The position numbers were made by a program, and so were the translations under genes. The notes beneath the pieces were generated by a model that saw only the letters and a list, made by a program, of their open reading frames with translations, did no database searches and had not been told where the DNA came from. A stretch of DNA of 64,000 bases, taken from the NCBI GenBank assembly GCA_973895155.1, contig OZ316896.1:12752549-12816548 (forward strand), read 5' to 3'. Positions within the stretch are counted from its first letter, which is position 1. Each line of letters begins with the position of its first letter. Below are positions 3,983-27,254 of the stretch, piece after piece. The stretch comes from Marsupella aquatica. Lineage: Eukaryota; Plantae; Marchantiophyta.

Positions 3983-6900
3983 AATTTACCCTCCCTATTC
4001 CATGATGAATACTCAACCAAAACCCCGACCAAGACCAAAATCTTCACTTTCGCTTTGATGGAAGTGTAGCTGACCTACTCCTCTAGCACATCCTCAAAAC
4101 TAAAAAATATTTGAATTTACGAGCATCGAGTTATTACAATTAAACTCAAATTTTGGGAAATGTGGTCCATGGGGGTTTCAAAAGACCAACCTTGTGGTCC
4201 ATGGGAACATCATTTTCTCATTACAAATAGTTGAGAAGTTAAAGAAATATTTAAACATTTTTGTAGAATATAGGTGAACTCAATTAATTGTAATTTATTG
4301 GGAGAGGAGTTAATAATGGTTATCAAGTTTTGAGATGGTCACTAATTAATGTGGGGACACAGCGCCAAGGCAAAATCTTTGTCGTGGTTGGCATGATTAA
4401 ATTATCTCGGCATTCATTTGTATTTTCTCAATCTGTGTCCTTCAATGAGTACACTTATGTGTGATTTGAAGCAAGTTTCTGTTGGCATACCAGTAAATGC
4501 CATCAGTTGATGCATTTCAAGGTAGGTTTAATTATAAGCACAAAGTTCAATCTGGACAAGATCAGATTTTATGTCAATAGGGGTTAATGTATGGAAATTG
4601 AGTGATTGTTAGGGAAACCACAACTCCTATCCTTCTGCTAATTTTTTTGTGGCTTTTATTGGTGACCGCTGTTAAAACTCTGAGTCAACTCCAATTTGGC
4701 CAAAACTGTTAGACCTACTTTAGGGGGGAAAGCTAAAGAGTTGCGACGCTTCATTCAACCAATCATGAAAAGAACAGATTCCGTTTCTTTGACCAAAACT
4801 GAGTTTTCTACTGGTCAGCCCTCGTTGCTCTCGGGAATCTGTGAACAGGCCCTTGTGGATCCCTTCATTTTGCCGATGTGTACATTTTTTGGGGTCAAAA
4901 CTTAGACCTCCTCTTGAGGTGTTCTTAAAGACTTGAGCAAGCAGCAGCTTCTATTCGGAGCATTGATTTATTTTCGCCAGACCTGACACATTTTGGCTCA
5001 GACATTTTAAATTTAGCATATAGAACTGGCCATCAGCTTTGCTTTGATGGAGTGACACTGGACTGCCCTCACCATCTTGTAAGCCCCCATAAGCAATCCA
5101 CCAAAGAGCAAGAGAACGCACGTCATGGCAAATTGGGTAGCAATGTTTGCCGGCATGACAAAATCATGATAAGTACCATGAAACCCTCACAAGAGGGTGC
5201 TATGGCTTATTACGGCTGTGGGTATTTTTTTAAGGTTTTTTCTGTTGAGCTTTATACTAACCTGTCCCCACAAACTACCAGTATTTAGTTATGGCGTCCC
5301 TAAACTAGTTTGTTTCCTAACCAGACCCCCATTTTGTGTATGAGAGCTAACTTGACTTTTGTTCTGGTTGGTGCAAGTCCTTGTGTTGTCACATGGTGCA
5401 ACGCCAATGGCTGTAGGCTTAAACCAATCTCCCTCTTGCCCCATACTACTGGCCAACCGTTTGAGGCTGACAAGTGAAGCCAAATCCTTCTTCAGTGTGG
5501 AAAAAATGAGGCCGAAAATGATGTATTATTTACAAAATTGTAATATTTTGTCACAAACTTATCTGTCTTGAACTTCCGCCAGCAGCATGGGGGAAGAGAG
5601 AGAGATTGGCGGGTTAAGCATGCAGCCATTGGCACCTCACTACGGGGCAGCGGGAGGCCCTGCACCATCAGAACGGAGGCCAAGTGAGCTCTGCTGAGTT
5701 GAGTCAACACTACCTTATATACCAAATAGGTGTCAGGTTCGCATTTAAATTAATTTAGGAGACACCTTACTAAGCTTCAGTAGTTTAGGGGATAGGTTAG
5801 TAAAAAGTAGTTGAGTTTTCTCTTACCTTAGGGTGACAAATGTCACCTTTTGAAAGAGGGGGGGGCAAATGCTAAGAATATTCAATATCAAATTTAACTA
5901 TATTAGTTTTCTGAACATTAGATATTGCTAGATTTAAGGATAAACATTAGATTCTAGCTTCTGGGATCTGTGGCTAGCCTGTGTAAAACTGGCTATTGTA
6001 ATGGACAACAAACAACCTAGTGAATTTTTGCCAAAAGTGTCAAAGCCTTTTGAGAGAGGTGGAATCTCTTGAGTTCTTGCCCCTGGCCCCCAGCATTATT
6101 AATAATGGGCTGGACGTGCGAACAGATGAAGGGTGCAAAAAATCTGATTTGAGATTAATTTTTATAATTGGCTTAGAAATATCAAGGAATGGTTTTATTC
6201 AAAGAACCCTTTCTAACTAATATAGGCTTATATAAATGTGACCCAAGTTAATATGCTTCAAGAGGTGATGTAATATGGATGTGACACGTGTCACAATAGG
6301 ATTGGTCCTTGTGGCCACCCTTTATGGGAACATGTGTATATGACATATAATTATGCTTGCAACATCTATGATTCAGAGTAGTTTAGGACTTTGGAGCTTT
6401 TGAACCCTGACTACCCTGCCCTGTGGTTCAGAAATGCCCCAAAGTTGAAGTTTGGGGTTAAAGGGTCACGAACACAAAAATGTATGTACCCAAAACCTTT
6501 CCAAAACACTCCCGTCAGTTTTAGAACCGTTTGCACATGATGAATTTATAACTTTTCAAGGCTTTCATAAATGGTGTAAAATGTAAAATTATAATATCTC
6601 AAAGGGGCAGATTTATTCTCCAAAATTAAGTTTTTAAGAATAACAAGAGAAATTTTTATAGGCTTCCAAAAATAATAAGGGGTACTAGGGAGGGGGGTGT
6701 ACGCACGTATACCTCTTTAGTTTACAAAGGTTGGGGGCCCAGGGGTTTTTGCCACCCAAAAAGTGCTGGTGCCATCCCTAGGGTGATTATGAGTCAGTAG
6801 TCCCCAATTGACTTGGTGGTGGAGGGCTGACATATTCACTCTTCCTGGGAGAGTGAGGCTTGCTGATTTAAGAGTCTATAGACAAATTCCTCTCGGTGAC

Positions 6901-7592
6901 CCTTTTATAGAGTTTTGACCAGGTGGTGGAGGGCTGAGGCATTAGGGCGTCTCAGACCTAGGAAAAGCAGACTTAACGATCGTCGTTAACCCTGCAGTTA
7001 AAGACATTCTCGTAACTCAAATGGTACGCCTAAAATGTTGTCGTTAACATTTGGCCGCAGAAATTGGCCGTTGCCCGTTCCCGCAACAGGGAATAGTAGT
7101 CTTTCCCTGTTTTTGCGGGACACTGCTCCCGACACTACTATTTTGAACCCGGCCCTCCACCATATCTCACTTTCATTCTGCGCTGGTTTTCTTCGAGCAT
7201 TGTCGAAAGTCACTGCCGGTAAAGCTTTGTTGGAGAGGTGGACGTCGGCATTGCTGCAGCTGTTTGCAATAGAGGTGGACGTCGCTTTGTTGGAGAGGTG
7301 GACATCGCTGCAACAGAGTGCTGAAGCTCTTTTGCGCCCACACTCAGTATTGACCCGGGAGATTGGAATGCGCATATAGGACTGCGGAGGGCGTCAGTGC
7401 ATAGACGATTGAGGAGATTGAGCTGGGGATTGAGCTTGAGGTTGCATTTGAAGCTTGAAGCAGGGCAAAAAATTAAGTGAGTTACCGTCCATCATTCTAG
7501 TGCCCTTCGGTTTACACTATTTGTGATATGAGAATCAGACGGACAAATTCATGTGATTGTTTTCGTAGTTTTGCAAGGCAAAGGATTTATTT

Positions 7593-8075
7593 TTGAGTGC
7601 AATGGTGTTGTACACATCGTTAGCTCAAGTTGAAGATTACAGAGTGAATGGACATACGATTGCTCAAGTGCCTACACTAGCCTACATTGCAAACTTTGTT
7701 GCTGAAAATCTTTATCCTAAAAAATTCATGTACATGTCATGTCCAGCACTAATGCCAACAGGACATCTATGTGGGAAGTCATTAGAGTTTGGTCACAACT
7801 GTCAGCATTCCTCGTTGTTTGGAAAACCAAAATTCAGATTTCATCTTATTTTGTTTGGTGCTGTCTATGGAGGGGTTCCGCCCATCCGTGCTAAAATATG
7901 GGATGCAACTGAGACTATCTTGGATTGCTCTCCATGTGAGTTTGCAAGTTGTTCAGAATCTGAGCAGATTGCCTACGTTCTGTCATTGACTCAAGTCACA
8001 CCTGTGGTTGAAGTTATCTTCAAAATTCCTGATCATGAAATCCATGTGAAGAGAATTCAATTAGTAATTCACTGA
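7593..8075 (+). pseudogene. RPA70 C-terminal-like (zinc-ribbon OB-fold) gene inside the transposon, truncated at about 8050
   Basis: FMYMSCP...CGKSL...NCQH...KFRFHLIL...IRAKIWDATETILDCSPCEF resembles the Rep_fac-A_C pattern (YxACxxCxKK..C..C..RYxL..D.T..F...AE.ILG). The last few codons overlap antisense retroelement sequence. Confidence 0.6.
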
Positions 8076-11000
8076 TCTCTTTCTCAAGCTTAGGTGCTAG
8101 GTCCCGCCCCAAGTTCAGTTCCCTTCCTTCTCCTAAGTCGAGCTTCCGGTATTGCCGTGCTTGGATCATATTAATCTGCTTCTTCAAATTTGGGTCCAGC
8201 CCGGCCTCCAGCCTCTCCAGTCTCATACCTCCATAGACTAGAATCTTGGCTGTACTAGCCGAGTCGGTTGACTTAATTTCTCCATTTTTATCCGCAGACT
8301 GTTCCCTTGTCGGTCTATTCGGTTTTGAATTGGTTGTCGGCTTCCCTTCCCGACTCGGCTCTGGGTTGTTTCTGCGTATTTCATCCATTCTTGCTTCTTG
8401 AGGGTCAGGCCGTTGTGCTCTTCCGGCTTCTAGTAGGGCCTCAATTTGTTCTGCCCTTGTGATTGGTTTGTAAGCCGATCCCCTTGTATTTAATTTGTTG
8501 CTGATGATCGATGGCGTTGTGGATCCCGTCGGCTCTGCCACAACGACTGAGGAAAATCCACTGTCCGTGCTGCAGCTCCCCACCTAGCCGTTTCATCCAA
8601 CTGGTCCACCTCTTTTACTTCCTCCAAAATTGAAGCTAAAAAGGTGGATTCTATTGTAAAGCAGTCCTCGGTCTCTTCTTCGCCCTCCTCCAAGCTACTC
8701 TCCATAGGCTCTTGCCATAGTCCGTTGGGGGGCACCTCTGATCCAAAGACACTTTCTTTGGTTAGGTCAGTGAGGCATTCTAGCCAACGTACTTCATCGA
8801 TTGACTCCAGTCCACTGTCGTACCCATCTACTTCCCTGATGCTTTTCCTACGGTCATCCTTAGTGTCCCAGGATATCATGATAGAAGGGGTCCCAAAAGA
8901 GAACTCCTTCTTACCCCAATCTTCTATTACCTTGGCTAGGTACAACCATGGCCTGCCAATTAATAGTCGGAATGACGTAGGGTTCACTGGTTTCATCACT
9001 ACATAGTTAATGCTAAAGAAGATACCTCCTATCTCAGTCTTGATGCCGGTTAACACCCCCGTGGGAATGACTTGATACCCATTGGCCATGTTTAACACTC
9101 TTCCAGTCATCTCCGGTGTTAGACCCCATCCTTTTGCTGTTGAATCAATCATAATATATACCCCGGATCCTCCATCAATGGGCACCCGCAGTAATATTTC
9201 TCCTTGAATCATTAATGGTAATGCTGGGGCTCCTTGATCTTCTCCTATCATCAACACGTCGGATCTGGTTGCTACCTTGGGTAATCTCGGCTTGCCGAGA
9301 ACTGCCTTCCTTAACTGTTTCTGAAAGTACGGGCTATTTTTCAACAGTTGACCTACTGTTGCCGAGACTCTAGATTCTAGTACATCTTTAGCCAGGTCAT
9401 ATGGGACTATCGGCTTCTCGTCTGGTGGTGTCTCCATCTTGGTTTCGGCCTGTTTCTTCACGCTAGTTTCCACAGCCGTTGGTTCTTCCAAAGCAAACAA
9501 TGCTTTTGCTCATTCCACATCCTTGGCTATGGCTTCGATATTCTCCAGGGTTTCTAATTCTCAGAGTTGTTCTTTAACACTAGCCGTAATAGAGGGGTAG
9601 AACAACTTAGGGTGATCTTGGTTGAAGTCGCTGTCCTGTGAAGGATTGGGGTCACTGGTGAGCTCATGGCTTACCTGTGTTGCCGGCGCCTTTCCTTCCC
9701 CTTCCGTTGATGTTGCCGAAGAGTTGATCCTTTCTTCCTTAACCTTCCCTTTATTTTTGGCCAGCCCATCCCACCTTTCCTTCCTTCTGGTGGATCGAGT
9801 AGAGACCCGGTAGCAATCCTGGTCCAAATCTTCTTCTGAGAATGTTGATAAGGCCTCGGCCTCATCATCAGATGGTCTGAACTCTGCCTCGGCATCCGTT
9901 TGCCATCCGAGTTCGATGTGGTTGATTTGAACTCCTCCTAGTGTAGTACCTGGCGGTAAAACCTTGACTGGCAAGAGCTTATGATTTGCGGCCAGGCCTG
10001 CCAACCAAGTAGGACATTGTCCTAGCATGTGACCCTCCTGTCGGCATCCCATACATAGCTGAGCTAGTTGCCCATCACCTTGTTTGCGTGCATTCAGGCA
10101 TTCTCTAGCAAAATGGCCAGGTTGACCACAATTATAGCATGCCGCAAATCTTTGCACATTCAGCCTAGGAGGTACTGACGGATTCTGAATAATCCGAGGA
10201 TACATCTCTCCTGGATTGTTCCTTAATCCTGACCAGAGAGATGCAGGTCGGTTGGATAGATCTCGTGCTCCAGTCTCATTGATGCCGAAAACACTATCAG
10301 CAACATCTCCTAGGAAGTACTCTACTTCTCCCTAACACGGTCTGACCTCGGCCACATGCCGAACATGACTGGTATTAAGTTTAGGACATGCATCTTTATG
10401 GTGTCCAGTTTTATAACATAAGGCACACCATACAGAGCTATCCTCCTGTACTACCTTCTTCTTTGGCTTTATCTCTGCTATGATAGCCTTAAGCTGCTCG
10501 GTAAGAGCTACGATGTTATCTGATTGGCATTTTAGCCTCTAGTTTGACTTTCAACTTCCCCCTCCTTCTACCCTTCATTTTCCTAGATTTTTCTTCTTCA
10601 AAACTAGAAGATGACTCACCCTTGCTACTTCCACTATCCGAGCTTGAGTTATCACTTCTTGACTTCTTAGAATGTTTCTTTTTCTTATCTTTTTTCTTAT
10701 GGGGTGATCCTTCCTCCGATGAGGAACTCTCAGACTTAAGCTATTTCTTCCGGCTTGTGATATCTGCATTAATGTATAATTGAATATCCTTAATTGCCTC
10801 GGCCAAGGTCTCTGGGTTCTCCTTCCTAATTGCAAAACTTATCTTTTGTGGCAAAGCATTCACCAACCATTGAAGTTGCATACCTTCAGATGCATTGGTT
10901 TTTGTACGTCTTACCAACTTTTGGAAGCGTTGCAAGAACTTCCTGAAGGATTTGTTCTCCTTGAACCGAAGTCATCCCAACTTCAGCACTGCTAACTCTG

Positions 11001-11295
11001 AAGTTCCAATGGGTCAAAACTCTTTGACAAATAGTGATCTGAAGGTATTCCAGCTGGCTTGATCTTCCACATCCAATGCTCTATACCAAGGCCTAGCCTC
11101 ACCCTTGAACAGGTTGGGAAGAATTTGCATTTTGATGGTTGATTCTCCATTTGCTACAGCGGTTCCTTCAAAGTCATCCAACCATTCGTCCGGATCCTCA
11201 TCTCCTCTCCCATGAAAGGCCTTGTAGTGAATGCGTGACCGTTGGCTCAGTCTGGTCCCTGGCCTCTTGTCTGGCCGTGCCTCTGGTTCCCCCAT
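8050..11295 (-). pseudogene. Disrupted gag-protease polyprotein
   Basis: Gag start FHGRGDEDPDEWLDDFE; three CCHC knuckles (CALCYKTGHHKDAC, CYNCGQPGHFAREC, CMGCRQEGHMLGQC); protease motif VPIDGGSGVYIM. Split into several ORFs by stops and frameshifts. Confidence 0.88.
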
Positions 11296-11520
11296 GTTGG
11301 TTGGGGACTCACTTCTCCTGACCGACTCTTCTTCTGGTATTTCTTCTTCGATGCCACTTTCAGTTACGGAGTTACCAGCTCTTTCTGCCCCTCTCAGTCG
11401 CTATGTATCATGCCACCCGACGAGCTCTCTCCCGTTGAATCGCTCTTTCCTCCCTCGGCGTAGGTTCAGTCATTACCTACGCTTCCTTCCTAACTTCATA
11501 TCTCACGGCGTAAGAAATGC

Positions 11521-11538
11521 CCCCTCCATCTAGCGCCA
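11521..11538 (-). other. Primer-binding site of the Gypsy element
   Basis: TGGCGCTAGATGGAGGGG on the - strand, 4 nt after ...GCACCACA (LTR end at 11543) and upstream of gag. Confidence 0.8.
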
Positions 11539-11542
11539 AAAA

Positions 11543-14500
11543 TGTGGTGCATCCCATGACTCCCCAAACCCAAGAAACCCCTCTGCACAAGCCGATTCCC
11601 GCAGATTTCATCCTTGGCGAGGCCGTTTCCACGGCTTAGCGGCATGGGACGCTGCTAATCCTCTACTACTACTACTATTAACATTTTACACACATATACT
11701 GGACAGATCCTTCATCAGGTCATGAGATACGTAGTCGGCCTAATCTAGGCCTTCCCTTGTCTTCCCCTCACTTTTCTTAGGTATATTTGGATTCCGCCGC
11801 CGGAATGATCCCCAATTGGCTTGGTTAAGCCGCTAAGACCTCTCTCAGCTTGACACATCCAACTCTCACTCCCTTGCTTGCTTCCCTTCTCTATATTAGT
11901 CGATGTGGGCACTCTTCACACAAGTTAATGCGACACACAAATAGCAAAATGACTCCTTCTGACTGAGTTATACCATGCACTTGCCATACAAACAATACAT
12001 CTCATACACAAGCTCTGCGAACTAAGCCGTGAGGCCAACTCTATTAAGCTCTTAGGCATGAGGAAACATGAATATACACAAGGATCACTGTATAACTAAC
12101 CGAGAGCTTCTCTTACTACTTTATCCCAGCCCTGCTGGTGCAACTAAAAACTTGCTAAAGAAGAGGCCCTTAACTCCCCGCAGCCCAGGTACTTATCCTG
12201 GTTGTGGATCCGCCTGATTCCTTGCAGCGTAAGCCTAATCTACATATCTGTAATCTACCTAACTGTAATCTATCTATGTACAGCGAGGCAGGAGCACAAG
12301 TATCGCCCTTACCCGTGGATCCGCAATCCCACTAATCTAAGTGTCAGGGCTGTCTCCTGGTCCTGATCCTAAGTCTAAACTTGGAGATCAGCGCCCGTCC
12401 TGCCCACTCACGCCTCCTACCTCCATGTTCGCCCTCCCTAAAAGGAATGGTGCCCTTGCACCGTCACGACACCGGTGGCGGATCCTCAATGGACGCCCCT
12501 AATGCTTCCTCCGCAACCACTACCGTTGGTCCGTCCTCTGACAGATTACCTGCCCCGGACCGAGTCAACTCTTCATCGGCCTGACTGGGTCCACCCTCGG
12601 CTTCGGCCTTGGCCACGGCCTCCGATACGGTTATGGCCTTCCCGACATGTTCTAGTGGAGGATCCAGTACCTCGGCTTCATTACTGGTTGTCCCGGCCTC
12701 GGCCTTGCCATCCCCACTTCCTAGGACCGATGGATCCACCGTAGTGTCGATGCCGGAGGTTGGTGCCGTGTTTACCTTCTCGGTCACAACGGCTTGAGAA
12801 GCCGTATAACTCCCAGACCTAGAAGGTTTTCGCTTCTTCTTCTTCCCTATTTCGACAGCTGGTTCCTTTCCCTTGCCACTTACCTCCGGCACCGGGGTGA
12901 GTGTCTCGGCTTGTCCTTCGGCCGGTACTACCCCTGGCAACTGGGTTGCCCCAATTGGAGTTGGACCTGATGAAGCCAAGCACTTAAATATTGCGGCTTG
13001 TTTCTTTAGCCGCTCTGTTTGGTTGTCGGCCCGCTGCTGTAAGTTCTCCATCTTCCTCGTGCTTTCCTCCAACTCCTCCTGGGTCTCGTCCAGGTCCTTG
13101 CGCGCCTCCTCCAGCTCCTTCTGGGCCTCTTCTAACTCAATCCGGGCTTCTTGCAATTCTTTCCCTAAGGTAGCCCTCTCTTCCTGCGTTGCTCTTAGCT
13201 CCTTGTCGAGCTCCTTCACGACTTCAGACTCCATCTTATCCATCTTGGCATAAGTTTGATCGAGCTGGTCATCTTTCTCCTGCAGGTCGGCCTTGAAGCT
13301 GGCCATCAGGGATGCAAGCTCCTGCTGTAGCGCAATGATCCCTTGATAGGCCTTCCTTAACTCGGCCTCCTTTTTCTCAAGGGCTCCGCGGATATCCTTG
13401 AGTTCCCCCTTTAATGCCCTCTCCCTTCTTTGGGTCTCTGCCATGGCCCGATTGTTGGTTGCTAAGTGGGCCTCCTCTGGGTCCCTTAGCTCCCGCTTCC
13501 ACTTCTCTCTTTCCTTGACTTCGCCGACCAACTCTCCTTGGGTCCGAGTCAGTTTATCTTTGATAATCTGATTGTCAGACTGAGCGGCATCTAATTGCCC
13601 TTGCATGATGTTTAGCTCATGCTGCTTAATCCGCAACTCATCTTGGGCTTTCCTGGCCGCCTGTAGGCCTTCTGCCTTGGCTTCCCTCTCCCTAAGCCGT
13701 CGGATGACCTCGTCCTTCTTGCTTCTCTCCAAAGCCACCGCTTCTTCTAATCGGCGCTTCTCCAACATTTCCCTTTGGAAAAAGGGTCTCTGCTCCAACT
13801 CCTCCCCAAAGATGCTGAGCGCAAGTTCCCCACACATCTCTCCGTACTCCATGGCTCTATCCTTAGGATAGGTGGAGTAAGTAGAAGTCATTGGCATCAA
13901 CCACCGTGGCCTCTGCTCCCAAGCCGCCTTGCGGATCTCTTCAATCGTGGCTATCTGAGGGTTGCTTCTTTTTTTGGCAAATCGCCTGATGTCCTCTGGC
14001 CAATCTCCTCCTGGTAAATCTTCTCCCTAGCCAGGGCTGCCCTCTCTTCCTCCTTGAGTCGCTCCTAAAACTCTTGTGCTATCTGTTTTATGCTGTCGAC
14101 ATCCGGTGGGGGAGACTTGGGGCTGCTCTGCTGGGTGGGGTCCACTCGTGGCTGCCGTGGATGTTTCTCCTAGCACGGTTGCCTTTGTCCACCCCTCCGT
14201 GCTACCCTTTAACTCCCAATGTATGTCGTTGCAGCGATTGATGGCTTCCCGGATGCCGACAATTCTGTTTTTGCAAAACAGAAGGTCATCAAGATGATTG
14301 GCAGTAGGAGTCCACAAAAACTTAGCCTTGATAAGTTCTCCTCCTAAGAAGGCAGACTTTTGCAGCTCCCACAGTCGAGCGAGCTCCTACCATTCTCAAG
14401 CTGCTCTCTCCGATTCTTCATCCTCGTAGGTCCCAATGTACTCAATTGCTTGTTTGAACAAGCATCCCCAAAAATGTGCAGCTTGATTGACGTTGCTCGT

Positions 14501-14929
14501 ACCCTCCTTGAGTTTGATTTCCGGTATCTACTCCTGCCCAGAGTGCTTGCCTAAGCAGCTGATAGCTGGCCTCCCGTAGTCGTCTGCCTAGTTCGCTTGC
14601 AAATGAACCATCATTCTTTGCGAGCGGTCCTTACCCCTCTCCCTGCCTGGTCTTCCCTCCCGTTGGTTACCCCTAGCCGCCGTCACTTAGCGCATCCTAA
14701 CCCTAATCGTGTTCTCACCCCCGACGACCTTACTTTCGGCCTCGGCCCAGGTTCCATAGTCACCCTTAATTGTTTATATTTTCCTTGTTTTGTTTACTAT
14801 ACTAATGTGTTTCCAGGGTACACTCCCGTTTTCCCCACTTAACTGGCCTAGTGATTCCTGGCTAGGCATCACAAGGGCTCACCTTGAGTGCCTAAGCCCC
14901 TCTCTTTGCACTTAGGTCGGAGTCGCACA
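11543..14929 (-). repeat. Putative long (3.4-kb) 5' LTR
   Basis: Termini TGTG...CACA. The 3' boundary is fixed by the PBS. The 5' boundary is inferred from the switch back to Harbinger-like sequence. There is no second copy to confirm it. Confidence 0.5.
12464..13900 (-). CDS. Retroelement accessory ORF: long coiled-coil plus low-complexity tail with a basic KKKKRK motif
   Basis: 478-aa E/K/L-rich heptad ORF. Disrupted upstream frames (14027-14317) suggest it was originally longer. Confidence 0.65.
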   Translation of the reverse strand: MMPMTSTYSTYPKDRAMEYGEMCGELALSIFGEELEQRPFFQREMLEKRRLEEAVALERSKKDEVIRRLREREAKAEGLQAARKAQDELRIKQHELNIMQGQLDAAQSDNQIIKDKLTRTQGELVGEVKEREKWKRELRDPEEAHLATNNRAMAETQRRERALKGELKDIRGALEKKEAELRKAYQGIIALQQELASLMASFKADLQEKDDQLDQTYAKMDKMESEVVKELDKELRATQEERATLGKELQEARIELEEAQKELEEARKDLDETQEELEESTRKMENLQQRADNQTERLKKQAAIFKCLASSGPTPIGATQLPGVVPAEGQAETLTPVPEVSGKGKEPAVEIGKKKKRKPSRSGSYTASQAVVTEKVNTAPTSGIDTTVDPSVLGSGDGKAEAGTTSNEAEVLDPPLEHVGKAITVSEAVAKAEAEGGPSQADEELTRSGAGNLSEDGPTVVVAEEALGASIEDPPPVS

Positions 14930-15100
14930 CCAGGTGAATATGGTAAACATGCTCAGCAATCCAGTCCTACTGTTGATAATACTTTGAGGCCCTCAATTCC
15001 CGATATCAGCCCAATAGATAGGCTGACTGTGTCTGGAAAAGCCATCGCAAAACTTCTTAGAAGGCTGCAGGAACAATTGAACTTAGATGACATCCAGTAA
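14930..15100 (+). pseudogene. Probable C-terminal remainder of the interrupted OB-fold gene
   Basis: An open frame starts right after the LTR boundary (PGEYGKHAQQSSP...KAIAKLLRRLQEQLNLDDIQ*), on the same strand as 7593-8075. Confidence 0.4.
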
Positions 15101-15296
15101 TTATGTTCGTGAATTAGAAGCATTACCTTGGTGCAGAGATTTACTTTATTGAGTACAAGTGATGTCTTCATTCGCAACAATTGTATGCCTGAAAGCAAAA
15201 TATTATGACATGTTGATGTCTCTTTGGACTGGATTATTGGGTACACTTGATCTTTTTGCTCACTGCTTCATGTTTATTGCAAATCTAGGGTTCACC

Positions 15297-16803
15297 ATGC
15301 CACGTGTTTTAGACAGACAAAGGGTGTTGAGGGAAGTGAAGGAGCAACTGTACATGTCCATTCTCATGGACAGCTCAAGTAGTGAGAGTGTTGAGTTTAG
15401 CAGTGACTCAAACTCCTCAACATTGGACCTGTTTAGTGATGCACAAGATACTGTCAGTAAATCAGACCAGGAATATGAAACCTCCCGTGACATTGAGGTT
15501 GGAGGTGACCCATTTGATTTTATGCCAAAGCCTACTGAAATCATGGAATTGTATTTTGTCATGGATAATACTCGGTATTTTGTGGATAAGCCTATGACTA
15601 TTAAGTCTAGGGACTTTGCTGAGAATCTTTTTGAAAACCTCCCACCTAAGCTGTTCAGGCAAATGACGTGCATGGACAAGGACTCTTTCTTTACGCTGGT
15701 GAATATGATTGAATCTCATCCGGTTTTTATAAATGATTCCCCTTATGAGCAGGCTCCAGTTTGCTTGCAGTTGGCAGTCACCTTGGACAGGCTTGGCCAT
15801 GATGGAAATGGGGCTTGCTTGAATCATATGATTCCCACTTGGGGTGTCAGTAATGGGTCGTTGTGCAATTTCACTATCCGATGTTTCAAGGCTTTGGAGG
15901 ACGCTTTGGCTGTGCATTTGCAGTGGCCAGACAAACAGGAACGAGCTCGGATTTCAAATGAATTTGTAGAGAAAGGGTTTCCTGGGTGTGTTGGCCTCAT
16001 CGATGGCACACTTATCCCACTCTCCCAACGCCCAAAGGATTCAGGAGAGTGTTACTTTGATAGAAAGTGTCGATACTCGATCAATGCTCAAGTAGTTTGT
16101 GATGAAAGGCACAAGATCTTGTACCTCTATACTGGTATGGACACTGCCCCTTTCTTATCACTAGCAGCATATATAGTCAAAATTTGCTATTTAGTTAAGT
16201 GGCCAAGCTTTGTCACTACTCACTTGGTGTTGTTGGTGAGCAGGAATGCCTGGATCAGTGTTTGATCTCACTTGCTTGAAACGGAGCAAGTTGTGGAGAA
16301 GATGCAGCGAGAATGGTCAGGACTTGTTTGAGGAGGGGCAATACTTGTTGGGTGATTTTGGATATCAGGCGTCTAAGTATTTTGTTGCAGCCTTCAAGAA
16401 ATATGATACGTTAGTGGACAAGGAGGACTTCAACTTCTGTGTGGCAAAAGCTAGAGTTACAAATGAGCATTGCATAGGTGTTTTAAAAAGTTGTTGGTTC
16501 TCTCTGAAAGAAATTAGAATTCAATTGAAAACCACCAAGGAACACTTGTGGATGGTTAGGTGGATAGGAATTTGTGCACGATTGCACAACTATGTGCTTA
16601 GCAAGAATGATCTCTGGAGTGAGGAGGATGAAGAAATAATCCTTGAAGGGTCCGAGCCTTTGGAGGAGGAAGGTCCTGAACAACAGAGGCCAAATCGTAG
16701 ACGTCGAATTGCAAATCCCAGTTCTCGCTTGCAGGCTGTCATGGCAACTGCCTTAGCATTTCACAGGCAGCCAGGGGGATGTCTGTGGCCTGTTGCAACA
16801 TAG
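15297..16803 (+). CDS. Harbinger/PIF DDE transposase (DDE_Tnp_4/HARBI1-like), 2 exons (15297-16134, 16244-16803), 465 aa
   Basis: Motifs LFRQMTCMDKDSF, QLAVTLDRLGHDGNG, GFPGCVGLIDGT, YSINAQVVCD, YLLGDFGY and NEHCIGVLK. Removing the GT-AG intron 16135-16243 restores YTGMPGSVFD in frame. Confidence 0.93.
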
Positions 16804-17201
16804 GATTTTAGAGTGGGTCATGAATAACATTCAAAGTTAGTGTGTAATGAAAGTGGAATTGTTTTTCATACTCCTGCTTGTGATGCATGCAAATTCTTAA
16901 TTGTTACATGAAATTTTAGTAAAGTGTTTGGTTTAAGACATTCAAGAAAATTTTGCTTGAGCATGTTATGTTTGGAGAAGAATGACAAGAAACACTCAAA
17001 CAGATTTTCTTTAGTGTAGAACGTGTTTTACAATTTAAACACTGTCAACTGTGCCTGCACTAAGCTCGGCACTAAGCTGCATTGACCTGTGCTACAACAA
17101 ACCTCTGAATGTTGCTTCATAAGTTCTGAACAAGTTGATTCATCCTTGGAGGTATACTTCTACATGCCTAAGCACAGATATCCCTAGTACATGCAAGTAC
17201 A

Positions 17202-18800
17202 CTAATCCTCAACGAGAGCCATGAGAGCTTTAATCTGCTCATTAGTCTTGTTACTTCGAGACAACTCAATCAACATCTGAGACCTTCTCTCTGCTCTTCC
17301 CATCTGCCACTGGTGGTAGCAATCAAGGCAGGCCTTCTTCTCAGCATTAGATGCACTTTCGTTCTCCATGTGCAGTTGATGCTTCCGCATTAACCTGTCT
17401 CGTTTTGCTGCTTCTGCTAATGAGTAAAGTCGAGCTTGCTTCTTCTCATCTAGCTCAATCATCTTCCACTTCTCCCAGGTTTGGAGGAGCTCCTTCTTGT
17501 AGTCAGCCTTCTGTAAGAGCCTCTCAGCATATATCTGTGCAACATTGGGCTTTGGAGGTGCAGGCTGCTTGTCGTCAACTTTCTTTGGTGGTGTCTTCTT
17601 AGTTGGTTGGTTCTCCTTGTTAGCCAATCCCACATTTGGTTGTCTGGGAGTTGCTTTAGTCCCCACAGGTGTGACAGGTGGTGTTCCCGTGTGTGCTGGC
17701 ATACCTCCAAAAGAACCACTAACACTGTCCTTGGGTGGACCAAAGTTGGGGAGAATTTCGCCCAGTCCCAGGAATCTGTGGACTGTTAGCACTACCAGGG
17801 AAATTAGAAGCTGAATCATGGGGGACATGCCCCGTGCCAATGTCCATGAGGTCCTCCTCCCAGAATTCAGGAGAATTGAATTCCAGTCCATCATCAACAC
17901 CTGCCGGTCCCTCTACATTCAATTCAGAACAAACATAAAATCAGGCAAATTCAGTCTATCAAATGAGATCCATTCAAGAAGAAGCAGCAAAACTTTTGTA
18001 GAAATCGTACCTGTGAGGATGATGGTAGGCGAGTGAGGAACAGGCGCAGCATCAGGAAGGTTGGATACATCTTCATGTGGATCATGACTAGTGAATTCAT
18101 CCTCGTCTATCCCGAAATCTCCAATACCTTGAGGTGCCACATTGGGCCGGCTTCCAAAGAGAGCATGCATCCTCTCGAAATGAGGACACATCCTCTCGAG
18201 CTTGTCCTCCAGAGTCAGGCCAGCCACAAAATCTTCCTCTGTTAGACCACCTCCGCTTGACATTTTCAATTCACAAGCTTCCTTGTACTTAGCAACATAC
18301 CTTGCAAATCGTTTGTTCAGATTAGGCCCGCTAATGTTCCTCGGGAAGTTATGTGCCTGCAAGACAACAAGCATTTGTTTAAAAATCGTAGCCCTGCTCA
18401 TCGGACGCCCCTGGATTTTTGTCTTTCCACCACCATGGATGAGGTTGAAGTTGTCCGGGTTCTCCAGCCAGTCAACAATCAATCCATAGTCAGAATGTTT
18501 CAGCCTGAACTTCTCTCCACCTCCAACACCACTTGTGCCAACAACACCTACAACATTTCCTGGGAGCCATGTCTGCAACGTTTGTTGTAGCTGCACCGAC
18601 AATGACAAAATCGATTCCGGAGAGAGCAGCGACTTCGACAGTGCAAGTATCGACTCTGGGTATTGACTCTCCAGACTGCAATTGAAGTTTAAGATTTTCT
18701 GGTAGAATGAGCAATGGGATACCCAATCTGCCCCATCCTCTTATCAGATCTTCCAACAGAGCCTCCTGTCCATGTTTGAATTTCCTGGGCGCCATTCGAA
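17202..18800 (-). pseudogene. Myb/SANT-like DNA-binding partner gene of the Harbinger (start uncertain; apparent frameshift near 17750)
   Basis: Domain LIVDWLENPDNF...RYVAKYKEA...SGGGLTEED...CPHFERMHALFGSRPNVAP; GT-AG intron 18010-17913; acidic/Pro-rich linker; C-terminal helical coiled-coil. Convergent with the transposase. Confidence 0.8.
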
Positions 18801-21800
18801 GGACCTCGCAAATCTGCATTGATGTTGATTGCAAAAACAACACTAAATTTTAGGAGGATTTCGAGTTCAAATGTCGGGAATTCCTCGCGAGCTATCGTGG
18901 ACGCTTTTTCTGCCTCGCCGTTGCGGACATTTTGGCAAAATTCATCCAGGTTTGAGCGGGCCAATTCCCGTAACATGGGCCTCAAGAGACGGATCAAACC
19001 CAGGCCCCCCTCTTTGTTCCAAACCCATTAGACATGGTCGAAACTGGAGTTAAAGCCAAAACTGCTTTCCCGTAACTTGGGTCACGGCCCTTAGGTCTGA
19101 GACGCCCTATTGACTATTCTCAGAAGGGTAGAGGCTCTGACTTGAATTTAGAGCCTTGAGACAAATTCCTCTTGCGCTCCCTTTTATAGGTTTTGACTTG
19201 GTAGTGGAGCGAGTGGTGAAGTGCTCAAGCATTCACTATTCTTAGGAAGAGAGGGTCTTGACTTTAGAGCCTCTAGGCAAATTCTTTTTGTTGATTTATG
19301 TAGTTTTTACTTCAGAGCTTTACCAAGCTCTTCAATTTATTGCTCTACAAGGTTTTAGTTCCTTGGTTATATTGGGGGACTTGCAGGCATTTTGGCTCTT
19401 TGGTCTCCTTTCCCTTCTTTGCTCCCCTTTATTGGGTGGGCCATTAAGGTACGGTGTCTACCTATCCTATGGCAAGCAATGGGCCCAAGGAAATGCTATT
19501 GTGGAATGTTTATTTTGTAAAAGTTTAGACCACACGTGAGGTGGTCCAAACATTTCCAAACTATGGCTCTCTCATAGAAGAGATATGCATTCACAACTTT
19601 TATTATAAGGACATTGCCACTAAAGTTGTGCTTAATTACAATACCGTCACTGCTTTTTATATCTGTAATACTGCCAAGCTAGACAAGGGTTGACCAGAGG
19701 TCAAATTCTATCCCGTATGATGCCTGCATTAGGTTAGGGTATGTTCAGTAGGCACTGTCCGTCACAAATAATTCTCAAGTTCTCAGAGGGGTTGGCTCAA
19801 GAGCAATCCCTTAGGGTCTATTACACACTTACAACCTTGACCTCTCTTGCTTATGGAGGAAGATGGAGTCCTGCAATTAACGCTAAGAGTACATGGACTT
19901 AGGGGACACTTCCCTTGTTCTTATCATTTCAAATATGACTGCCACCATATGATCAATGAATTGGGGGCCTTTTCTCTTTGCATAACACAAAAAATGAAAA
20001 TGTTTAATTGTGGGAAATGACCAAACTTTCTTTACTGACCTCATAGAAGTGCTTTTCAAATTCCCTGGCTCCATGTGTCATCACGTCAACATTTTTTTCA
20101 CAAACAGGGATGCCTATGTTTGCAGCAATACGCAAACACTACCATGTGTATTTGCCTTGGGGTCACCAAAAGTGGATAGACCCATGACATGCCCCTAATA
20201 ACAAACAAAAGGGTAGAAACATTATTTTGCACAAACAAACCATCAAATATATGAGATCGATGGATGAGATCAGATGTTAATGATGAATGGTGATGGTGCA
20301 CATTAAACTAACTGTACTTTAACTTTGTCAAATGTTCTTTTGAGTTTTCATGGTGTTGCTTCTGTGCTACTGGGGTACATCATCATCCTAAGTCGCATCA
20401 AAAGAGTTTTCCAGCCATAACTTTGTTGTCTTAAGTCCGTTTGGGATAAGATGGGGCCTAAGATTTTTATGGTGCTGCCTAGCTTGGCAACCTATTCACT
20501 ATATAGCTTGGAAGAAAAATAGACTTTCTAAGACTTTCCAATGACCCTCATCAAAATAATCACTCAGATGAAAAGGGAGAAGAAAAAGAAAACTTGGGAA
20601 AAGGGGACCGAGGAAAAAAGAAATGAAGCACTGCTAATGAAAATAAATGTTTTGGTGGATTCATTTGTATCCCCACATAATTAATTGAGGGTAGGTTGAA
20701 TGGATCACTATTGAAAAGCTGTGTAAGAGGCAAACACCAACACACATCTTTCATATAGTGCGATGTACTAACACCACACTGAGTTAATTAGTGCAAAATG
20801 AGTCATCACTGGACTCAATAAAGGATGAGAAAATACCTGGGTTGATTGTATATAATGAGCTCCATGTAAGTGTTATGACACCTTTTTCAATGGCAAACCC
20901 TTGCCACGGCCATTGTTAGCTGTTAAGTAATATGTTTAGATAATATTCAGTATTCCAAAAGTAATCACCACAAGTCCAACAAACGCTCCACAAACTACTT
21001 CATATTAATTTGTGGCCATTTTCTTTCAAAACCACCAGGATCCTATTTGCATGATCTATATGTGAAATGTTAGTACCTTAGTTATCTACACAATTCACTT
21101 TATTCAGTGTTACACACTAAAATCTACAAAAAATGTCCAACACACGGGATGGGTGAGAGTGCTCTCATCTCATTCAAATTGGGCTAGAAGGAGTATTATT
21201 TTACTCATTTCAGATATCAGAGTACTGTCACAGAACACACTATACAGATATGCTTGGACCTCACCCCCCAATTGGGGAACTCTCGGAATGACAGGATTGG
21301 ACGGCCATGAGGCTGGGAAGGGCTTGGGACGTAGTTCCATGTGGGTCCAAAAAGTCCCTCATGACGGTCTCACGTGTGTTCTGTGGGGCTAGGGCCACCA
21401 CAATGCAGTACCAATAGGGGGTCTCAATTATGAGACTGTGGGTTTCCAAAATGGGACCAGGCTAACGTCCGCTACATGGACTCCAGGCACCACATATGGA
21501 CCCTGGGGGGGGGGGGGGGGGGCATATTATTTGAAACCATCCGCGCCCAATCTATTCAGCCCACAAGCATCTTCTCTGTGTTTTCCCTGCGACATGTTTG
21601 CAAATAAACACTGAGCCAAAACAGTCATGGAACTCCTGTACCAGAAGTGTGACAACCACAGTTTTGGCTGTCCGCACACTGGTAGACATCTGTTTGGAGG
21701 CGTTACCGGGCAGCCCGTATGGGCCTCCGGGTCCAGAAGTGAGACCCCCTAATACAAGGTGCTTGCGACCATATGCGGTCCCTGCTTCTGAGACAATGCT

Positions 21801-23002
21801 CAATCGTTTTGAAACTCCCTTCCCTCTGCAGGCAAACTGTGTTGGTGGGGTCCTTGCAGCAAAGAACAGGGCACTAACAACATTAAGCTTCTTTCTTGCT
21901 TCCGTAATTCCTGTCAGGAAGAAGGTTACCGGTGTGTAACCTTTTCTACTAGGTACTACCATTTTCATAACCCTGTGCGTGGAAAGTCTTACCTGGTAGT
22001 CATTTTTCCGGGCAGGTATTCCATATGATAATGACTATTTGGGCTGGGGTTCTAGTCTGAACCTGTTCCACAAAGCTTAGAAAAACTTCCCGGCTGCCAC
22101 ATGAAGCCGTCACGAAGATTACCCTATACATCTTTCAGCGTCAGTGTTTTCTTTTTCTTCGGTCATCTCCTTCTACCGCCGGTCAGCATTTCCTCACTTT
22201 CTGGTCACAGGTTACTATCTACATAGTAACCCCAGACCAAACCATGATTACATCTTTTCAGTCTCAGTGTTTTCTTTTTCTTTGGTCATCTCCTTCAACT
22301 TCTTCGTCTTCTTCCTCTTCAGTCCTTTCCTGAGCTTCTTTTCTCCTCCTTTGTCCTCCCTCGTCTCCTTCAGTTTCTTCAGTTTCTTCGTTTTCTTCTT
22401 TCTTCCGTCCTCTCCTGTACTCCTTCTTCTTCCTAGTCCCTCGTCTCCTTCAGCTGTTTCTACAGTCTTCCCTCCGTCGATTGTCAGTCGTTTCTACAGT
22501 CGTCGCTCCGTCGATCGTCTACTCTTCAGCTTCAGCTGCCTCTTCTTTCTTCCGTCGACTCCATGAGCTTCAGCTTGAGCTCCTTCTTCTGCTTCTTCTT
22601 TCTGAGCTTCTTCAGCTTGAGCTCCTTCTTCTTCTTCGTCTTCTTTCTCTTTGCAGTCTTCCTTCCTGCGACTGTTGACTGTACTACTTCTAACTACTGT
22701 AGTATTTCGTTCAGCTTCATGTTCTTCTTGTTCTGTGTTGCGTCGAGTCTTTACTGCTTCGATTGTTAGACGAAGGAGAGTTTTTTCGATTCTCGGCAGC
22801 GTCTCGCGGAAGCTCGAGGGGAGTAAGAAGTCTGCTCGTTATCGTGTTGTGGTTGTTTGGGCGGAGCGAGGTGGAGGCGGGAGAGGACAGGAGTGGAGCT
22901 AAGGGACAAGGGTGGGAGAGCATCGAGCATAGCACAGAGGAGAGAGCGGAGCGGAGGTGGTGGAGGGGACAAGCAGTGGATGAGGGAGGGCAGGCGACGG
23001 GT

Positions 23003-25678
23003 ATGCAGCAACAAATGGCTTCGTATGCGGGCACTACAATAACGACTGAGCTCATTCAAAAGGTGATGCTGAGCCCGAGACTGAGTTTGTTTGCTTTTGT
23101 CGAGCTGGTGTACGGGCGAGTGTGTTTGTTGGAGAGAACGGTTTTGCGTGTAGGGCGTGGTTTTGTGTTTAAAAAATTGACGTTGTACCTGAAGGTGTTC
23201 AGCGGGCCTCACGTATGCGTATGCGTCTGTGGTTGTGTTGTGTGTTTTGTTTGGCAGTATTTGGACGAGAACAAACAACTCATCCTCGCTATTCTTGACA
23301 ACCAAAACCTGGGGAAACTCAATGAGTGTGCCACGTAAGTAATGCAACTGTTTCTAAATAGGCTTTTCGTGTCCTTGCTTTCAAAAAATTTCGTTGTCGC
23401 TGTCTGCACGAGTTTGTTGCTGGGGAGAGGAAAGGGGAAGTGTTCCCAGCGGCTTTATGGTTGATGCTTTTGTAGTGCGGGGAGGTTCTCTCGTATGGAA
23501 GCCTGCACTTCGCAGTTCGAATGGATGATTTGTTTTTAGTATTGCCCTCTTCGGTTGAGTTCCGTCTCTTTGGGCTTAGTCAGCGAATAGGGAGGAAGCA
23601 CTGTTGTCTTCTTCGTTTTGGTAGAAATTCATAATTGGGGGCAAGGTCTTAGAGACGTTCTCGAATGCGCAGGTATCAGGCAAAACTGCAGCAAAACCTT
23701 ATGTACTTGGCAGCCATTGCTGACGCACAGCCCCAAGGACCCCAGTCTTCATCGCAGGTACCCATCCTTAACTCTGTTGATTTCTCGGTTTTAAACATTT
23801 TAATAGTTGAACAAGTGAATGTATGATTGCTTGCTTTCCTGTTCTTCCTATCTTATTCTTCCACCTGTGGACCAGTCGGTTAAGAATCTCACTCATCTGG
23901 ATGAGAAAGTCTCACCCCTATTTCTTTCACAAATACTTACTCTAGGCAGACACGGTTCAGTGTCTTGATGACACCGAAGAGCAATCTAGTGTGGAAACAG
24001 TGTGACTCTGTTTTGGAAGCTTGACAATTGAGTCAAATACCTCACCTGGAGATGGTCTTTACGGGTTTGTCAGTTAAATAAACAAGTTTCCCACTTACCT
24101 GGACACGGTTTAAATCGACCAGGGTATCCGCCTAAACTTTTTTTAAATTCTGAGAAACAGTCCATGACATAGTCTGGAGGGTTGCTTTTTGGTCAAAATT
24201 TATGAATACAGGTTGATCATGGCGGGTCTTTCGAATCTGCTTGACCTTAGCAAGACTTTTGTACTGTTCAATGGAGTGAAGAGTAACATCTTCAACATTG
24301 ATCAAGTAGCTCAAGGTTGTCTACTCTCTGATCCTCTTCAACGTTCTGGCCAGTCAGCTGCTTATGGATGAGGAAGAAGTGGATCTGGGATTCAGGTGAG
24401 AAATATCACTATCCCAGCCCTTCTGGCCTGTAAGGAAGATTGTAAAGGGTTCTCATTTTCGGTAGTAAATAAACCTTGCTTGCCAGCTTTAGAGGCATAC
24501 TATTGAATGAGTAACTCCATGCGTGGATTGAAACTAAACCAATCAGCTGCATAGTCAGTTGCTAGAGGTTGAGAGTTAAGGAAGTCCTCTCGTCTACCAC
24601 TTGCTGCCAGACTAGGTATTCAAGGCTCTCAAGTCTATCAAATACAGCATTCTGATCCCACCTCTGCCCAGTTTTTAGGACCCTCTGGCTTTCCTTCGAA
24701 AGGTTTGCGTATATACACAGCTAGTATCTCGAAACTTCTGTGCACTGTAGTCTCCCCTCGTACCGCAGTCACTTGTCAACCAAAACTTTAGGTATGTCTC
24801 GAGCGATGGTTATAATCAACCTACCTTATGCCAGTATAAAGAGAACAGTTATTGAACCTTAGCTGTCCTCCTCTTGTGACGAGTTCCGGGTTTGTCAGGT
24901 CCCCAATTGCTGTCCAAAATATCTTTCTTGGCAGTGAGGGTTATCCATACCTCCATTGCGTGTCCGTCCCGCGTTGTAACTGGAAGTAAATGATTTTCTA
25001 GGTCGTTCATGATTCAGGAGTTTGCAGAAATTAGTTGAGGTCTTCACGTTTGAGATACATATTTTTTCGAACTTCCTTAGCTAGGATTATGTACATAGGT
25101 GTTCAGAAGTAATGCATTGATGATTTTCGAGTGTTCTCTTCGGGACTAAGGTGCTCTAATTCTGTTTGTAACGAAATGTGTCAATGAAACTGTCTCAGGC
25201 CACTGCTTCCAATGCGATGCCGGCAGCACAGCAGCAGTACATGCAGCAACAACAGCAGATGACTCACCAATCCATACTAGGACAACGGGGTGGGTCCGCG
25301 CAGTACCTCGGTCAAGGCCAAGGTTCTTCTCATCAGTCTGGGCAGCAGCAGCAGTCATTACATGGGCAGCAAGGGATGATCTCGGGTGGCAGTTCTGGAC
25401 TACATATCATGTCGGGTGAATCAGGGATGGGTGGGAATGGACCTCCTTCTGGTGGGTCTAGTTTTGGCGAGTATGGTCATGGAAAAGGTGGAGTTTCTAG
25501 AGAGGGAGCGTTACAGCAAGGTGTCGTACTACGGGGTGCCGGTGGAGGATCAGATATGCAAGGCCTGGGAGGCCATCAAGGTGGTAGGGAAGGAGGGAAC
25601 TCTGCATCTGGGCATGGTCACGGTGGAGATGATTCAGAAGCCTCCTACTTAAAGGGATCGGACGAAGATGGCAATTAG
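23003..25678 (+). CDS. GIF: GRF-interacting factor (SSXT/SNH-domain coactivator, AN3 family); exons 23003-23062, 23258-23334, 23673-23757, 25199-25678; 233 aa
   Basis: Spliced product ITTELIQKYLDENKQLILAILDNQNLGKLNECATYQAKLQQNLMYLAAIADAQPQ, then a Q/G-rich tail ending SYLKGSDEDGN. All introns are GT-AG and in frame. Confidence 0.96.
24140..24400 (+). mobile_element. Degenerate LINE reverse-transcriptase fragment in GIF intron 3
   Basis: VLFNGVKSNIFNIDQVAQGCLLSDPL resembles the non-LTR RT motif VxxNG..S..F...RGVxQGCPLSP. An upstream VHDIVW resembles AYDxVxW. Confidence 0.6.
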
Positions 25679-27254
25679 GCAAGAACGTCGAAAGGAGGAT
25701 TCTGGAGCAGACTGTAGTGATCACTGCATTGGAAAGTATTGTTTTCCAAAGCTCTAACTGGGTTTGCTCATTTGGTAAACTAGATAGGATCAGGCAAAAC
25801 GAGAGGAAGCCTCAAGAGGCAAATTTTTGTTCGGTGGTAGTTTTCAATGAACGTGCACCACGTTAGGTTTGCGGCTGTGATTTGTGTCCACGTGGCGCAG
25901 GTAGCCTACAGACTTCTGGATTGTTCCTGAATGGCAGCCAACAAAATGTCTGGTGGTTTTTGGACATAGTGGTTGGTGCCTTTCTGGGGTATCATTCGTT
26001 GCACACAGGAGTAGAACCAGGCAGGACAGTTAGTGGTGTATCTGTTGTACAAATCCTGTCACTGAACTCGGCTTAGACCGCAGGCTGCTATTTTTTAACT
26101 CGGTGAAGGTTTCGGGCCCCTATAGGTCTATTTTTTGATGTGATAGATTGGCCGAGCAATGTGACCACGATGTAATGGTTGTTCTGACATCCACTAGGAA
26201 AGACGTCAGGATTCTAATTTTCATTTGCCTCGTCGGTTTTGTGGGCGTTTTGCTCTTTCAACCTGTTTAGCAAACTTTTCATTATCAAACGATGTGCTCA
26301 ATGTAGTAAGAGATAAACAGCTCCACGGCAGCAGGACAAGTAGTTCGCGTCCTCTAGTATCGCGTTCTTGATTTTCGTATGAATTTGTGAGACCTCGGCA
26401 TACGAACTCGGTTTGCCCAAACCATATCCTTCTGTTTACTGTGTTTTACGAACGCTTAGATGTCAGACCAGCTCCAGGTCTCTGGATTCTGAAATACTTA
26501 CATTGACGCAGATGTAATCATTCCGATTGGCTTCAAAGCTGACTGCTGTGTGAGGCAAGGAGAAACCTCTTTCGTGGACTTGCTATTCAATCTCTGTGGT
26601 TCGTTTGTTTCACAGGGCTAGGCGAGCTCGATTTACAAACGCCTGAGAGTCAGTCAGTCCTATCGGTGGTACCACCATCAAAATGCTGGAGCTGGCCATC
26701 ATGAGTGAATAATTTCACTCACGGTCCACGATTGTGAGTGCAGGAACAGAATGATGATGCCCACTGAACGAAGCACGTGCTATTGTGGCGTACCTCCCGA
26801 AGATCGTCTCCAACGATTTTATCCCCACGTCCTCGAGTAATGATTGACGGACGATTAGAGAGAATGAGAGTGGCTAGAGTTCCGTTATCAAAGCCCCACT
26901 TTCGTTCTTTCGACCCAGAATTGACGCTCGTGAAGCGAATTTGTCCAAGGTTTAGGGTACCTTCTATTGCCTCAAGGTTTTGTACAGTACCTTCTATTGC
27001 AGTTTCCCCCTCTCACGCGTTGACAGTACAGTACAGTCTGCCGTGCATAAGTGCATCCTGACTAAGTGCATTTTGTGGCGAAGTGCAGGCTGGCCATTTA
27101 GTCCCCTAAATATTACACCTATTTCCATTGTCAATGCAACAAAAAATGTAAACAGATTGCAGACGTGCAGGTAGACCCTGCCGCCGTATAGTCCCCAGGC
27201 TGGCCTTTGTAGTCAACTTATAAGCCAGATGGTCCCGTAATATTGTCACCCCAG

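Follow-up and report, generated by a model that had tools for sequence, protein, structure and literature searches.

The 64,000-nucleotide stretch of DNA analysed here, called the window below, comes from the liverwort Marsupella aquatica (contig OZ316896.1, positions 12,752,549 to 12,816,548 of the forward strand; all coordinates below are those of the window). At 6944-19108 lies a Pangu-like Harbinger transposon, 5.4 kb long when intact and broken in this copy, with three genes: a DDE transposase, its partner, and a third, which encodes a protein predicted to resemble the C-terminal DNA-binding domain (DBD-C) of RPA70 (RPA1), a subunit of replication protein A (RPA). The element is bounded by perfect 17-bp terminal inverted repeats (TIRs), noticed already in an earlier sequence-only reading of this DNA: the left TIR (6944-6960, plus strand) begins with AG and is identical at 17/17 bases to the right TIR (19092-19108, minus strand). 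ATT flanks both, at 6941-6943 and 19109-19111. The insertion site is a degenerate host tandem repeat with a unit of ~111 bp (about 6800-6943 and 19112-19300), and the units on either side of the element, which act as an empty-site control, have one ATT at the equivalent position; this supports the flanking copies as a true target-site duplication. Without a nested Gypsy retrotransposon the element measures 5,359 bp, close to the earlier estimate of ~5.3 kb. A scan of 6500-19600 against Rfam gave zero matches.

The transposase gene (15297-16803, plus strand) consists of two exons, 15297-16134 and 16244-16803, and an intron at 16135-16243 (GT..AG) joins the two reading frames in phase. Matches to DDE_Tnp_4 of Pfam in both frames (E 1.5e-5 and 9.5e-15) confirm the gene where the sequence-only reading had placed it. 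The catalytic D, D and E codons lie at 16002, 16354 and 16465, and the product, ~465 aa, is similar to a homologue of 462 aa (P0099). The 23 homologues found come from Calypogeia, Riccia and other records, with 62% identity for the best of them; identity to the liverwort-type homologues is 45-64%. Scans of metagenomes and of prokaryote genomes gave one distant locus each (32% identity), neither with an OB (oligonucleotide/oligosaccharide-binding) match, and viral contigs gave none; both loci (L001:3877-4143 and L002:8001-8267) are lengthy prokaryotic reading frames that resemble the core of the transposase weakly, at 32%.

The partner gene (17202-18794, minus strand) lies tail to tail with the transposase. 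Its open frames run from 18740 to 17919 and from 17912 to 17202, with a likely intron at about 18010-17913, and in the window copy the frame appears to change near 18560 and again near 17760. The minus-strand frames had been announced, at about 18800-17202, as a Myb-like partner; the frames stand, and the label is unconfirmed since the partner has no Pfam family at E<=10 and no meaningful match among PDB sequences. Among the Pangu rows examined in Table S3 of the group's description (30 of 35 places), two have a Myb domain and the others none (PMC4482050).

The third gene, on the plus strand, is split by an insertion. Its first part (7602-8057) begins with an ATG at 7602, is colinear up to 8057, and encodes the RPA70 DBD-C-like OB fold with a putative Cys3His zinc ribbon (C47, C57, C67, H69); its second part (14874-15103) encodes the end of the last strand, a linker rich in Ser, Pro and Thr, and an amphipathic C-terminal helix. 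Between them (8058-14873, minus strand) lies a truncated Gypsy-type long terminal repeat (LTR) retrotransposon that is not part of the family. Sister copies were examined in assembled contigs of four runs from two studies (X1-X4; X3 with ~57% of the run covered). Contigs in three of the four (X1, X2 and X4) bypass the Gypsy and connect 8057 with 14874, with 10 other letters between; 8058-14873 is therefore a later Gypsy insertion that lacks its own 3' part and took 10 bases of the gene with it. In the covered part of X3 there is no such joint, and cover at 14870-15211 is zero. The joined frame has 231 codons and a natural stop at 15101-15103. The window copy, besides the 10 bases gone at the junction, has a premature stop at 14885-14887, where P0001 has Arg; its tail is otherwise open to 15100, and 14888-15100 is 56% identical to the P0001 C-terminus over 68 aa. 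In X4 an interrupted contig (14870-14915, no differences) and a joined contig (ending at 14915) both feed one that starts at 14886. For 31-letter words this would put the last difference between the two forms at 14885, so the stop is likely private to the broken copy. The X4 depths (37.7 for the joined form, 20 for the interrupted form, 16.6 for the unique flank) are a rough hint at few copies, depth not being copy number and the runs possibly including the window's own source. The sequence-only reading had the third frame run from 7593 to about 8050 and perhaps resume at 14930-15100: the frame and its resumption hold, its limits are corrected to the ATG at 7602 and to 8057, and it resumes at 14874. 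The search for uninterrupted copies that it proposed thus yields Gypsy-free copies with the joined frame in three of four runs, so sister copies do carry the gene.

The nested Gypsy appears to have one LTR of ~3.3 kb, from 14873 (TG start) to about 11544 (CA), a primer site near 11539, and a gag gene with a zinc knuckle (zf-CCHC and a weak Retrotrans_gag match in Pfam); it ends abruptly in pol, and no second LTR is present in the window. The LTR apparently encloses a long coiled-coil frame (14386-12464), with stops; a coding LTR would be unusual. Contig depth over the LTR exceeds that over the internal part.

As a lone query the third frame finds no Pfam family, PDB sequence, word-based search match or usable Atlas match. 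An exhaustive search yields 70 homologue clusters at E<=1e-3, 34 of them at 1e-10, with 24-75% identity; a word search with the profile adds two members only, both already known. The homologues have a median length of 209 aa (three exceed 300 aa) and are mostly stand-alone; P0070, the weakest match, consists of a repeat and is probably spurious. In nearly all of them the OB domain begins within the first 36 residues, and no further OB domains follow; similarly, five annotated Calypogeia gene models (207-271 aa) have the domain at the start and no upstream OB domains. The family thus does not have the upstream DBD-F, A and B of a whole RPA1 subunit. One liverwort genome holds five paralogues with 25-41% mutual identity, the pattern expected of a gene that travels on a transposon. 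By sequence comparison the third gene is a deep conserved protein family. An OB tree in a quick version (55 rows, with fragments <140 aa and P0062 excluded) served only for picking proteins.

With an alignment of 57 homologues, AlphaFold2 returns a model with a mean predicted local distance difference test score (pLDDT) of 94.9 and a predicted template modelling score of 0.86; the single-sequence model has a pLDDT of 36.6. RPA70 chains rank first in Foldseek (E 1.2e-4 and 5.3e-4). In VIA-align the model matches DBD-C of Ustilago maydis RPA (4gnx_C) with Z 13.3, 140 of 157 residues aligned and a root-mean-square deviation of 3.1; U. maydis RPA, Teb1 OB-C and human RPA (Z 13.3, 13.2 and 13.0, over 136-140 residues) score above other OB proteins. 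Sequence profiles point in the same direction at low scores: the single PDB match is yeast RPA1 DBD-C (E 0.14), and among the 57 aligned homologues Pfam finds CDC24_OB3 in nine and Rep_fac-A_C in four, all weak (best E 0.008). The Atlas independently links homologue P0004 with Rep_fac-A_C, through structure (TM 0.54) and, as no more than a lead, through features (0.78). By prediction, then, the third-gene product is a free-standing OB fold of the RPA70 DBD-C kind, with a helical cap and a zinc ribbon between strands 1 and 2. The fold proposed in the sequence-only reading, the RPA70 C-terminal zinc-ribbon OB fold, is borne out by the AlphaFold and Foldseek check that it recommended; its zinc site is Cys3His, not Cys4.

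The putative zinc ligands Cys47 (55/57 homologues), Cys57 (52/57), Cys67 (53/57) and His69 (55/57) are kept, and zinc forms of the C3H type are known in archaeal RPA (PMC8329085). Tyr44 (55/57) and Trp/Phe100 (52/57) align with a Tyr and a Phe of yeast RPA1 and appear, by spacing, to correspond to contacts with single-stranded DNA (ssDNA) listed for U. maydis RPA (PMC8329085). Position 96 is Arg in 32/57 homologues and Trp in RPA. Behind the barrel, both clades of homologues have the Ser/Pro/Thr-rich linker and then the amphipathic helix; in 33 of 39 homologues the helix exceeds the linker in amphipathic character. The full-length profile detects no similarity between this helix and the trimerisation helix of RPA1, and the linker intervenes. 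Three copies of homologue P0003, co-folded with the alignment not used, score 0.00, which gives no verdict. In sum, the likeness to RPA70 DBD-C (4gnx_C, 1l1o, 6i52_C), Teb1 OB-C, Rep_fac-A_C and CDC24_OB3 lies in the predicted fold, the zinc ribbon insert, the helical cap and, for DBD-C, the apparently retained stacking positions (Tyr and Trp/Phe). Unlike RPA70 DBD-C, the protein is stand-alone, has Cys-X9-Cys-X9-Cys-X-His (in the window copy) instead of Cys4, carries its helix behind a linker, and is 9-13% identical, below Pfam cut-offs.

The element belongs to the PHIS (PIF-Harbinger) superfamily by its DDE_Tnp_4 enzyme with D, D and E, its short TIRs with a 3-bp duplication, and its separate partner gene. 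The earlier label Harbinger-type holds at this level; the TWA duplication of canonical PIF/Harbinger is absent, since ends shifted one base inward give TTA on the left and TAT on the right, which are unequal. The Pangu group is defined by ANT duplications and TIRs beginning with AG (PMC4482050), and is named Harbinger2 in Repbase (PMC12730594). The ATT duplication is of the ANT type (one insertion only), and the 17-bp TIRs beginning with AG fall within the 11-40 bp, AG or GG, of Pangu/Harbinger2; on these two features the element fits better near Pangu/Harbinger2 than with canonical PIF/Harbinger. The DDE_Tnp_4 transposase, a second frame mostly devoid of motifs and the tail-to-tail layout are further points of likeness (PMC4482050), and this layout occurs also in Ectocarpus (PMC12477816). 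The three genes depart from the two-frame layout of most autonomous Pangu/Harbinger2 elements, which is typical, not defining, in the source. The host differs as well: a land plant, compared with the animals, fungi, oomycete and algae listed for the group (PMC4482050).

The genes may be expressed in a linked manner. The left non-coding end (6961-7601, plus strand) is CpG-rich (observed/expected 0.90) and is a likely promoter and 5' leader, with splice-like motifs of putative use: a single GTRAGY donor (GTGAGT, position 7477) and, immediately ahead of 7569, an AG resembling an acceptor. Before the transposase start, a block common to diverged sisters (15255-15296, plus strand) probably forms the 3' terminus of an intron in the 5' leader; it contains a branch-like CTCAC at 15259 and an acceptor-like AG near 15287, and sister contigs align from 15255 only. 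The gap between the third gene and the transposase, both on the same strand, is 193 bp, lacks all five TATA or poly(A)-like hexamers looked for, and is consistent with shared expression. It is plausible, from these motifs, that the third gene and the transposase are expressed from one promoter via alternative 3' splice sites. CpG observed/expected is 0.32-0.40 in all three genes vs 0.90-0.96 in the element ends. Separately, X1 contig depth climbs to 26,770 at 15250-15330, where numerous short contigs cover the leader and the start of the transposase gene; a non-autonomous derivative or the abundant sister family may lie behind this. In that sister family, ~86% alike at 15334-16807 and from 17190 onward, transposase and partner stand closer together (joint 16807-17190); the family is deep in X1 and X2, not in X3 or X4.

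The third gene probably adjoins a transposase gene in other families too. Source records were consulted for 23 third-gene representatives out of 70. The Logan contigs of OB homologues P0003, P0094 and P0007 (5,965, 2,983 and 3,608 bp) are exactly equal in size to those of transposases P0100, P0073 and P0085. Three identical sizes among 19 OB x 13 transposase Logan records arise by chance in 2 of 200,000 trials, and two or more in 369 of 200,000, the fairer figure because the first two pairs belong to one family; JGI (8 OB, 3 transposase) and ENA (1) contigs, omitted from this count, had no shared sizes. Identity of the size-paired proteins to their counterparts in the window is 40% for OB and 46-60% for the transposase, so the pairing looks old.

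We tentatively favour, at rather less than even confidence, a role of the third-gene protein as an ssDNA-binding helper that couples excision to repair by the host and so has the donor site restored by copying. The OB groove, with its stacking positions apparently kept, would bind resected or fork-associated ssDNA; the C-terminal helix, set off by the flexible linker, would attach the domain to RPA2/RPA3 of the host or to proteins that the element itself encodes; this docking would promote repair of the excision break with the sister chromatid as template; and such repair of the donor site would give a cut-and-paste element a gain in copies in a haploid plant. Homology-dependent repair is reported to permit replicative transposition of Harbinger-type elements (PMC10288884). 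Several points weigh against the helper role. The OB part of the window copy is not basic (12 K/R vs 13 D/E), and a lone DBD-C, without the DBD-A/B of RPA1, is expected to have low affinity. Two-gene relatives transpose without such a protein. Harbinger excision leaves short staggered ends that are mainly repaired by end joining (PMC4561436), and such ends are too short for RPA-type binding unless resected. Linkage is incomplete: 8 of 11 OB contigs >=1,700 bp have no transposase partner, 3 of 7 transposase contigs >=1,700 bp are matched, and the deeply covered ~86% sister transposase family diverges upstream of 15255 and shares sequence only from there. None of five Calypogeia OB accessions adjoins any of the eight transposase accessions found in a shallow search (nearest 377 apart). 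On the linkage to homologous transposases in other species, a check proposed in the sequence-only reading, the equal Logan contig sizes speak in favour and the Calypogeia accessions do not.

Other explanations account for parts of this evidence. The notion of a one-off chimera, i.e., a host gene or fragment caught between TIRs at one locus, draws on the decay of the window copy (Gypsy, stop, likely frame changes); it is largely refuted, and we regard it as very improbable, by the Gypsy-free joined copies from two studies, which continue into the transposase leader and have the family-typical Pro37 where the window copy has Leu. A passenger origin is broader: an RPA-derived gene from the host or a Helitron would roam among several kinds of transposon with no specific role here. 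Plant Helitrons routinely carry RPA-like genes (PMC9033089), TET genes cross between superfamilies (PMC12730594), one of the two homologue clades comes without linkage data, and most contigs looked up had no transposase partner; by analogy with TET genes, the third gene may also ride other transposons. Yet zinc and core residues kept at 25-41% identity need long selection, the domain sits near the N-terminus of nearly all matches with no extra OB domains, and linkage is likely in two more families at 40% identity, making a roleless passenger markedly improbable. Nor did the Helitron fragment considered in the sequence-only reading materialise: the three downstream CTRR sites (15189, 15229 and 15285) have weak upstream folds only (-0.5 to -4.0 kcal/mol), with no Helitron-type hairpin, and none of 11 frames scanned matches a RepHel gene.

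Two further readings give the protein a specific task. As a decoy for RPA, it would put its C-terminal helix in place of RPA1 in the RPA2/RPA3 three-helix bundle and so loosen replication-coupled transcriptional silencing. RPA subunits trimerise by C-terminal helices (PMC8329085), and the family retains an amphipathic one; Arabidopsis RPA2A/ROR1 is required for transcriptional silencing (PMC3950690); and other Harbinger third genes encode SET and TET enzymes (PMC12730594), chromatin enzymes whose presence favours an anti-silencing role. However, ~30-60 linker residues separate helix and barrel, unlike in RPA1, the profile detects no helix similarity, the ssDNA-stacking positions are apparently retained, needless for a pure decoy, and broad anti-silencing is considered rare in plants (PMC12973397); we hold the decoy to be unlikely. 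A transpososome subunit or targeting factor would dock on the transposase or the partner and guide it to forks or R-loops, or hold opened ends. The 193-bp same-strand gap agrees with such co-expression, and contacts between accessory proteins and transposases are documented in Mutator-like elements (MULE), Harbinger and CACTA (PMC12973397), but a VANC-like motif array was looked for in the element's non-coding DNA and not found, one 10-mer present three times in the left end being the only repeated motif; there is therefore no sign of sequence-specific self-recognition, and this role seems quite unlikely. A bolder reading is that a liverwort transposon lineage turned the RPA1 C-terminal domain into an element-specific alternative RPA, formed with host RPA2/RPA3 and expressed from the transposase's promoter. 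This is doubtful; if true, a transposon would encode its own imitation of a central replication complex, one that biases repair or silencing toward the element.

The statement that Harbingers normally carry two genes needs a qualification, in that third genes have precedent: HarbingerS (SET), reported as related to Harbinger2/Pangu, and PHISTA (TET/JBP) similarly combine a Harbinger-type transposase, a partner and one extra gene (PMC12730594). Their extra genes encode chromatin- or DNA-modifying enzymes (PMC12730594), whereas that of the window element encodes a non-enzymatic OB-fold domain. With plant Helitrons and their RPA-like genes (PMC9033089) the element shares a transposon-borne, RPA-derived protein, here with putative ssDNA binding. 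In contrast to Helitrons, the window element has TIRs, a 3-bp duplication and a DDE enzyme, and no obligate long ssDNA stage. Helitrons move via a single-stranded circle and carry multi-OB RPA70-like genes. No report of an RPA or OB gene in a Harbinger was found in the literature searched, which did not cover Repbase. In the supplement of a survey of 1,007 plant genomes, 'fac-A' and DUF223 occur at 0 places and REPA_OB_2 twice, both in MULE, among 28 of the 34 'rep' places (PMC12973397). Harbingers with three genes (SET, TET) have precedent, as have RPA genes in Helitrons; what appears new is an RPA-C gene in a Harbinger, a pairing not found in the literature searched.

A conserved RPA-like gene in a DDE cut-and-paste family suggests action on a host repair or replication step, an unexplained route of copy gain for non-replicative transposons; RPA-like genes were previously tied to rolling-circle Helitrons, whose movement includes a single-stranded stage. 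The element extends ANT-type Harbingers to land plants, and the third-gene protein, small and predicted to be well folded, offers a test case from a family that lacks annotation and counts 70 clusters or more. Harbinger-type enzymes serve plant genome engineering, where a protein able to shift how excision sites are repaired would be useful.

Elsewhere in the window, a host gene at about 22700-25680 encodes an SSXT domain (Pfam E 3.9e-6) and a Gln/Gly-rich end, presumably GIF/AN3-like by name. A Copia-type reverse transcriptase frame (RVT_2, E 4.7e-51) lies at 30571-32605 between two 300-bp repeats that are 98.7% identical and 1.7 kb apart. A 280-bp element at 54448-54727, like a miniature inverted-repeat transposable element, has perfect 40-bp inverted ends. 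Finally, a 2.85-kb segment at 56958-59806, with perfect 26-bp inverted ends and no frame >91 aa, is likely a non-autonomous DNA transposon.

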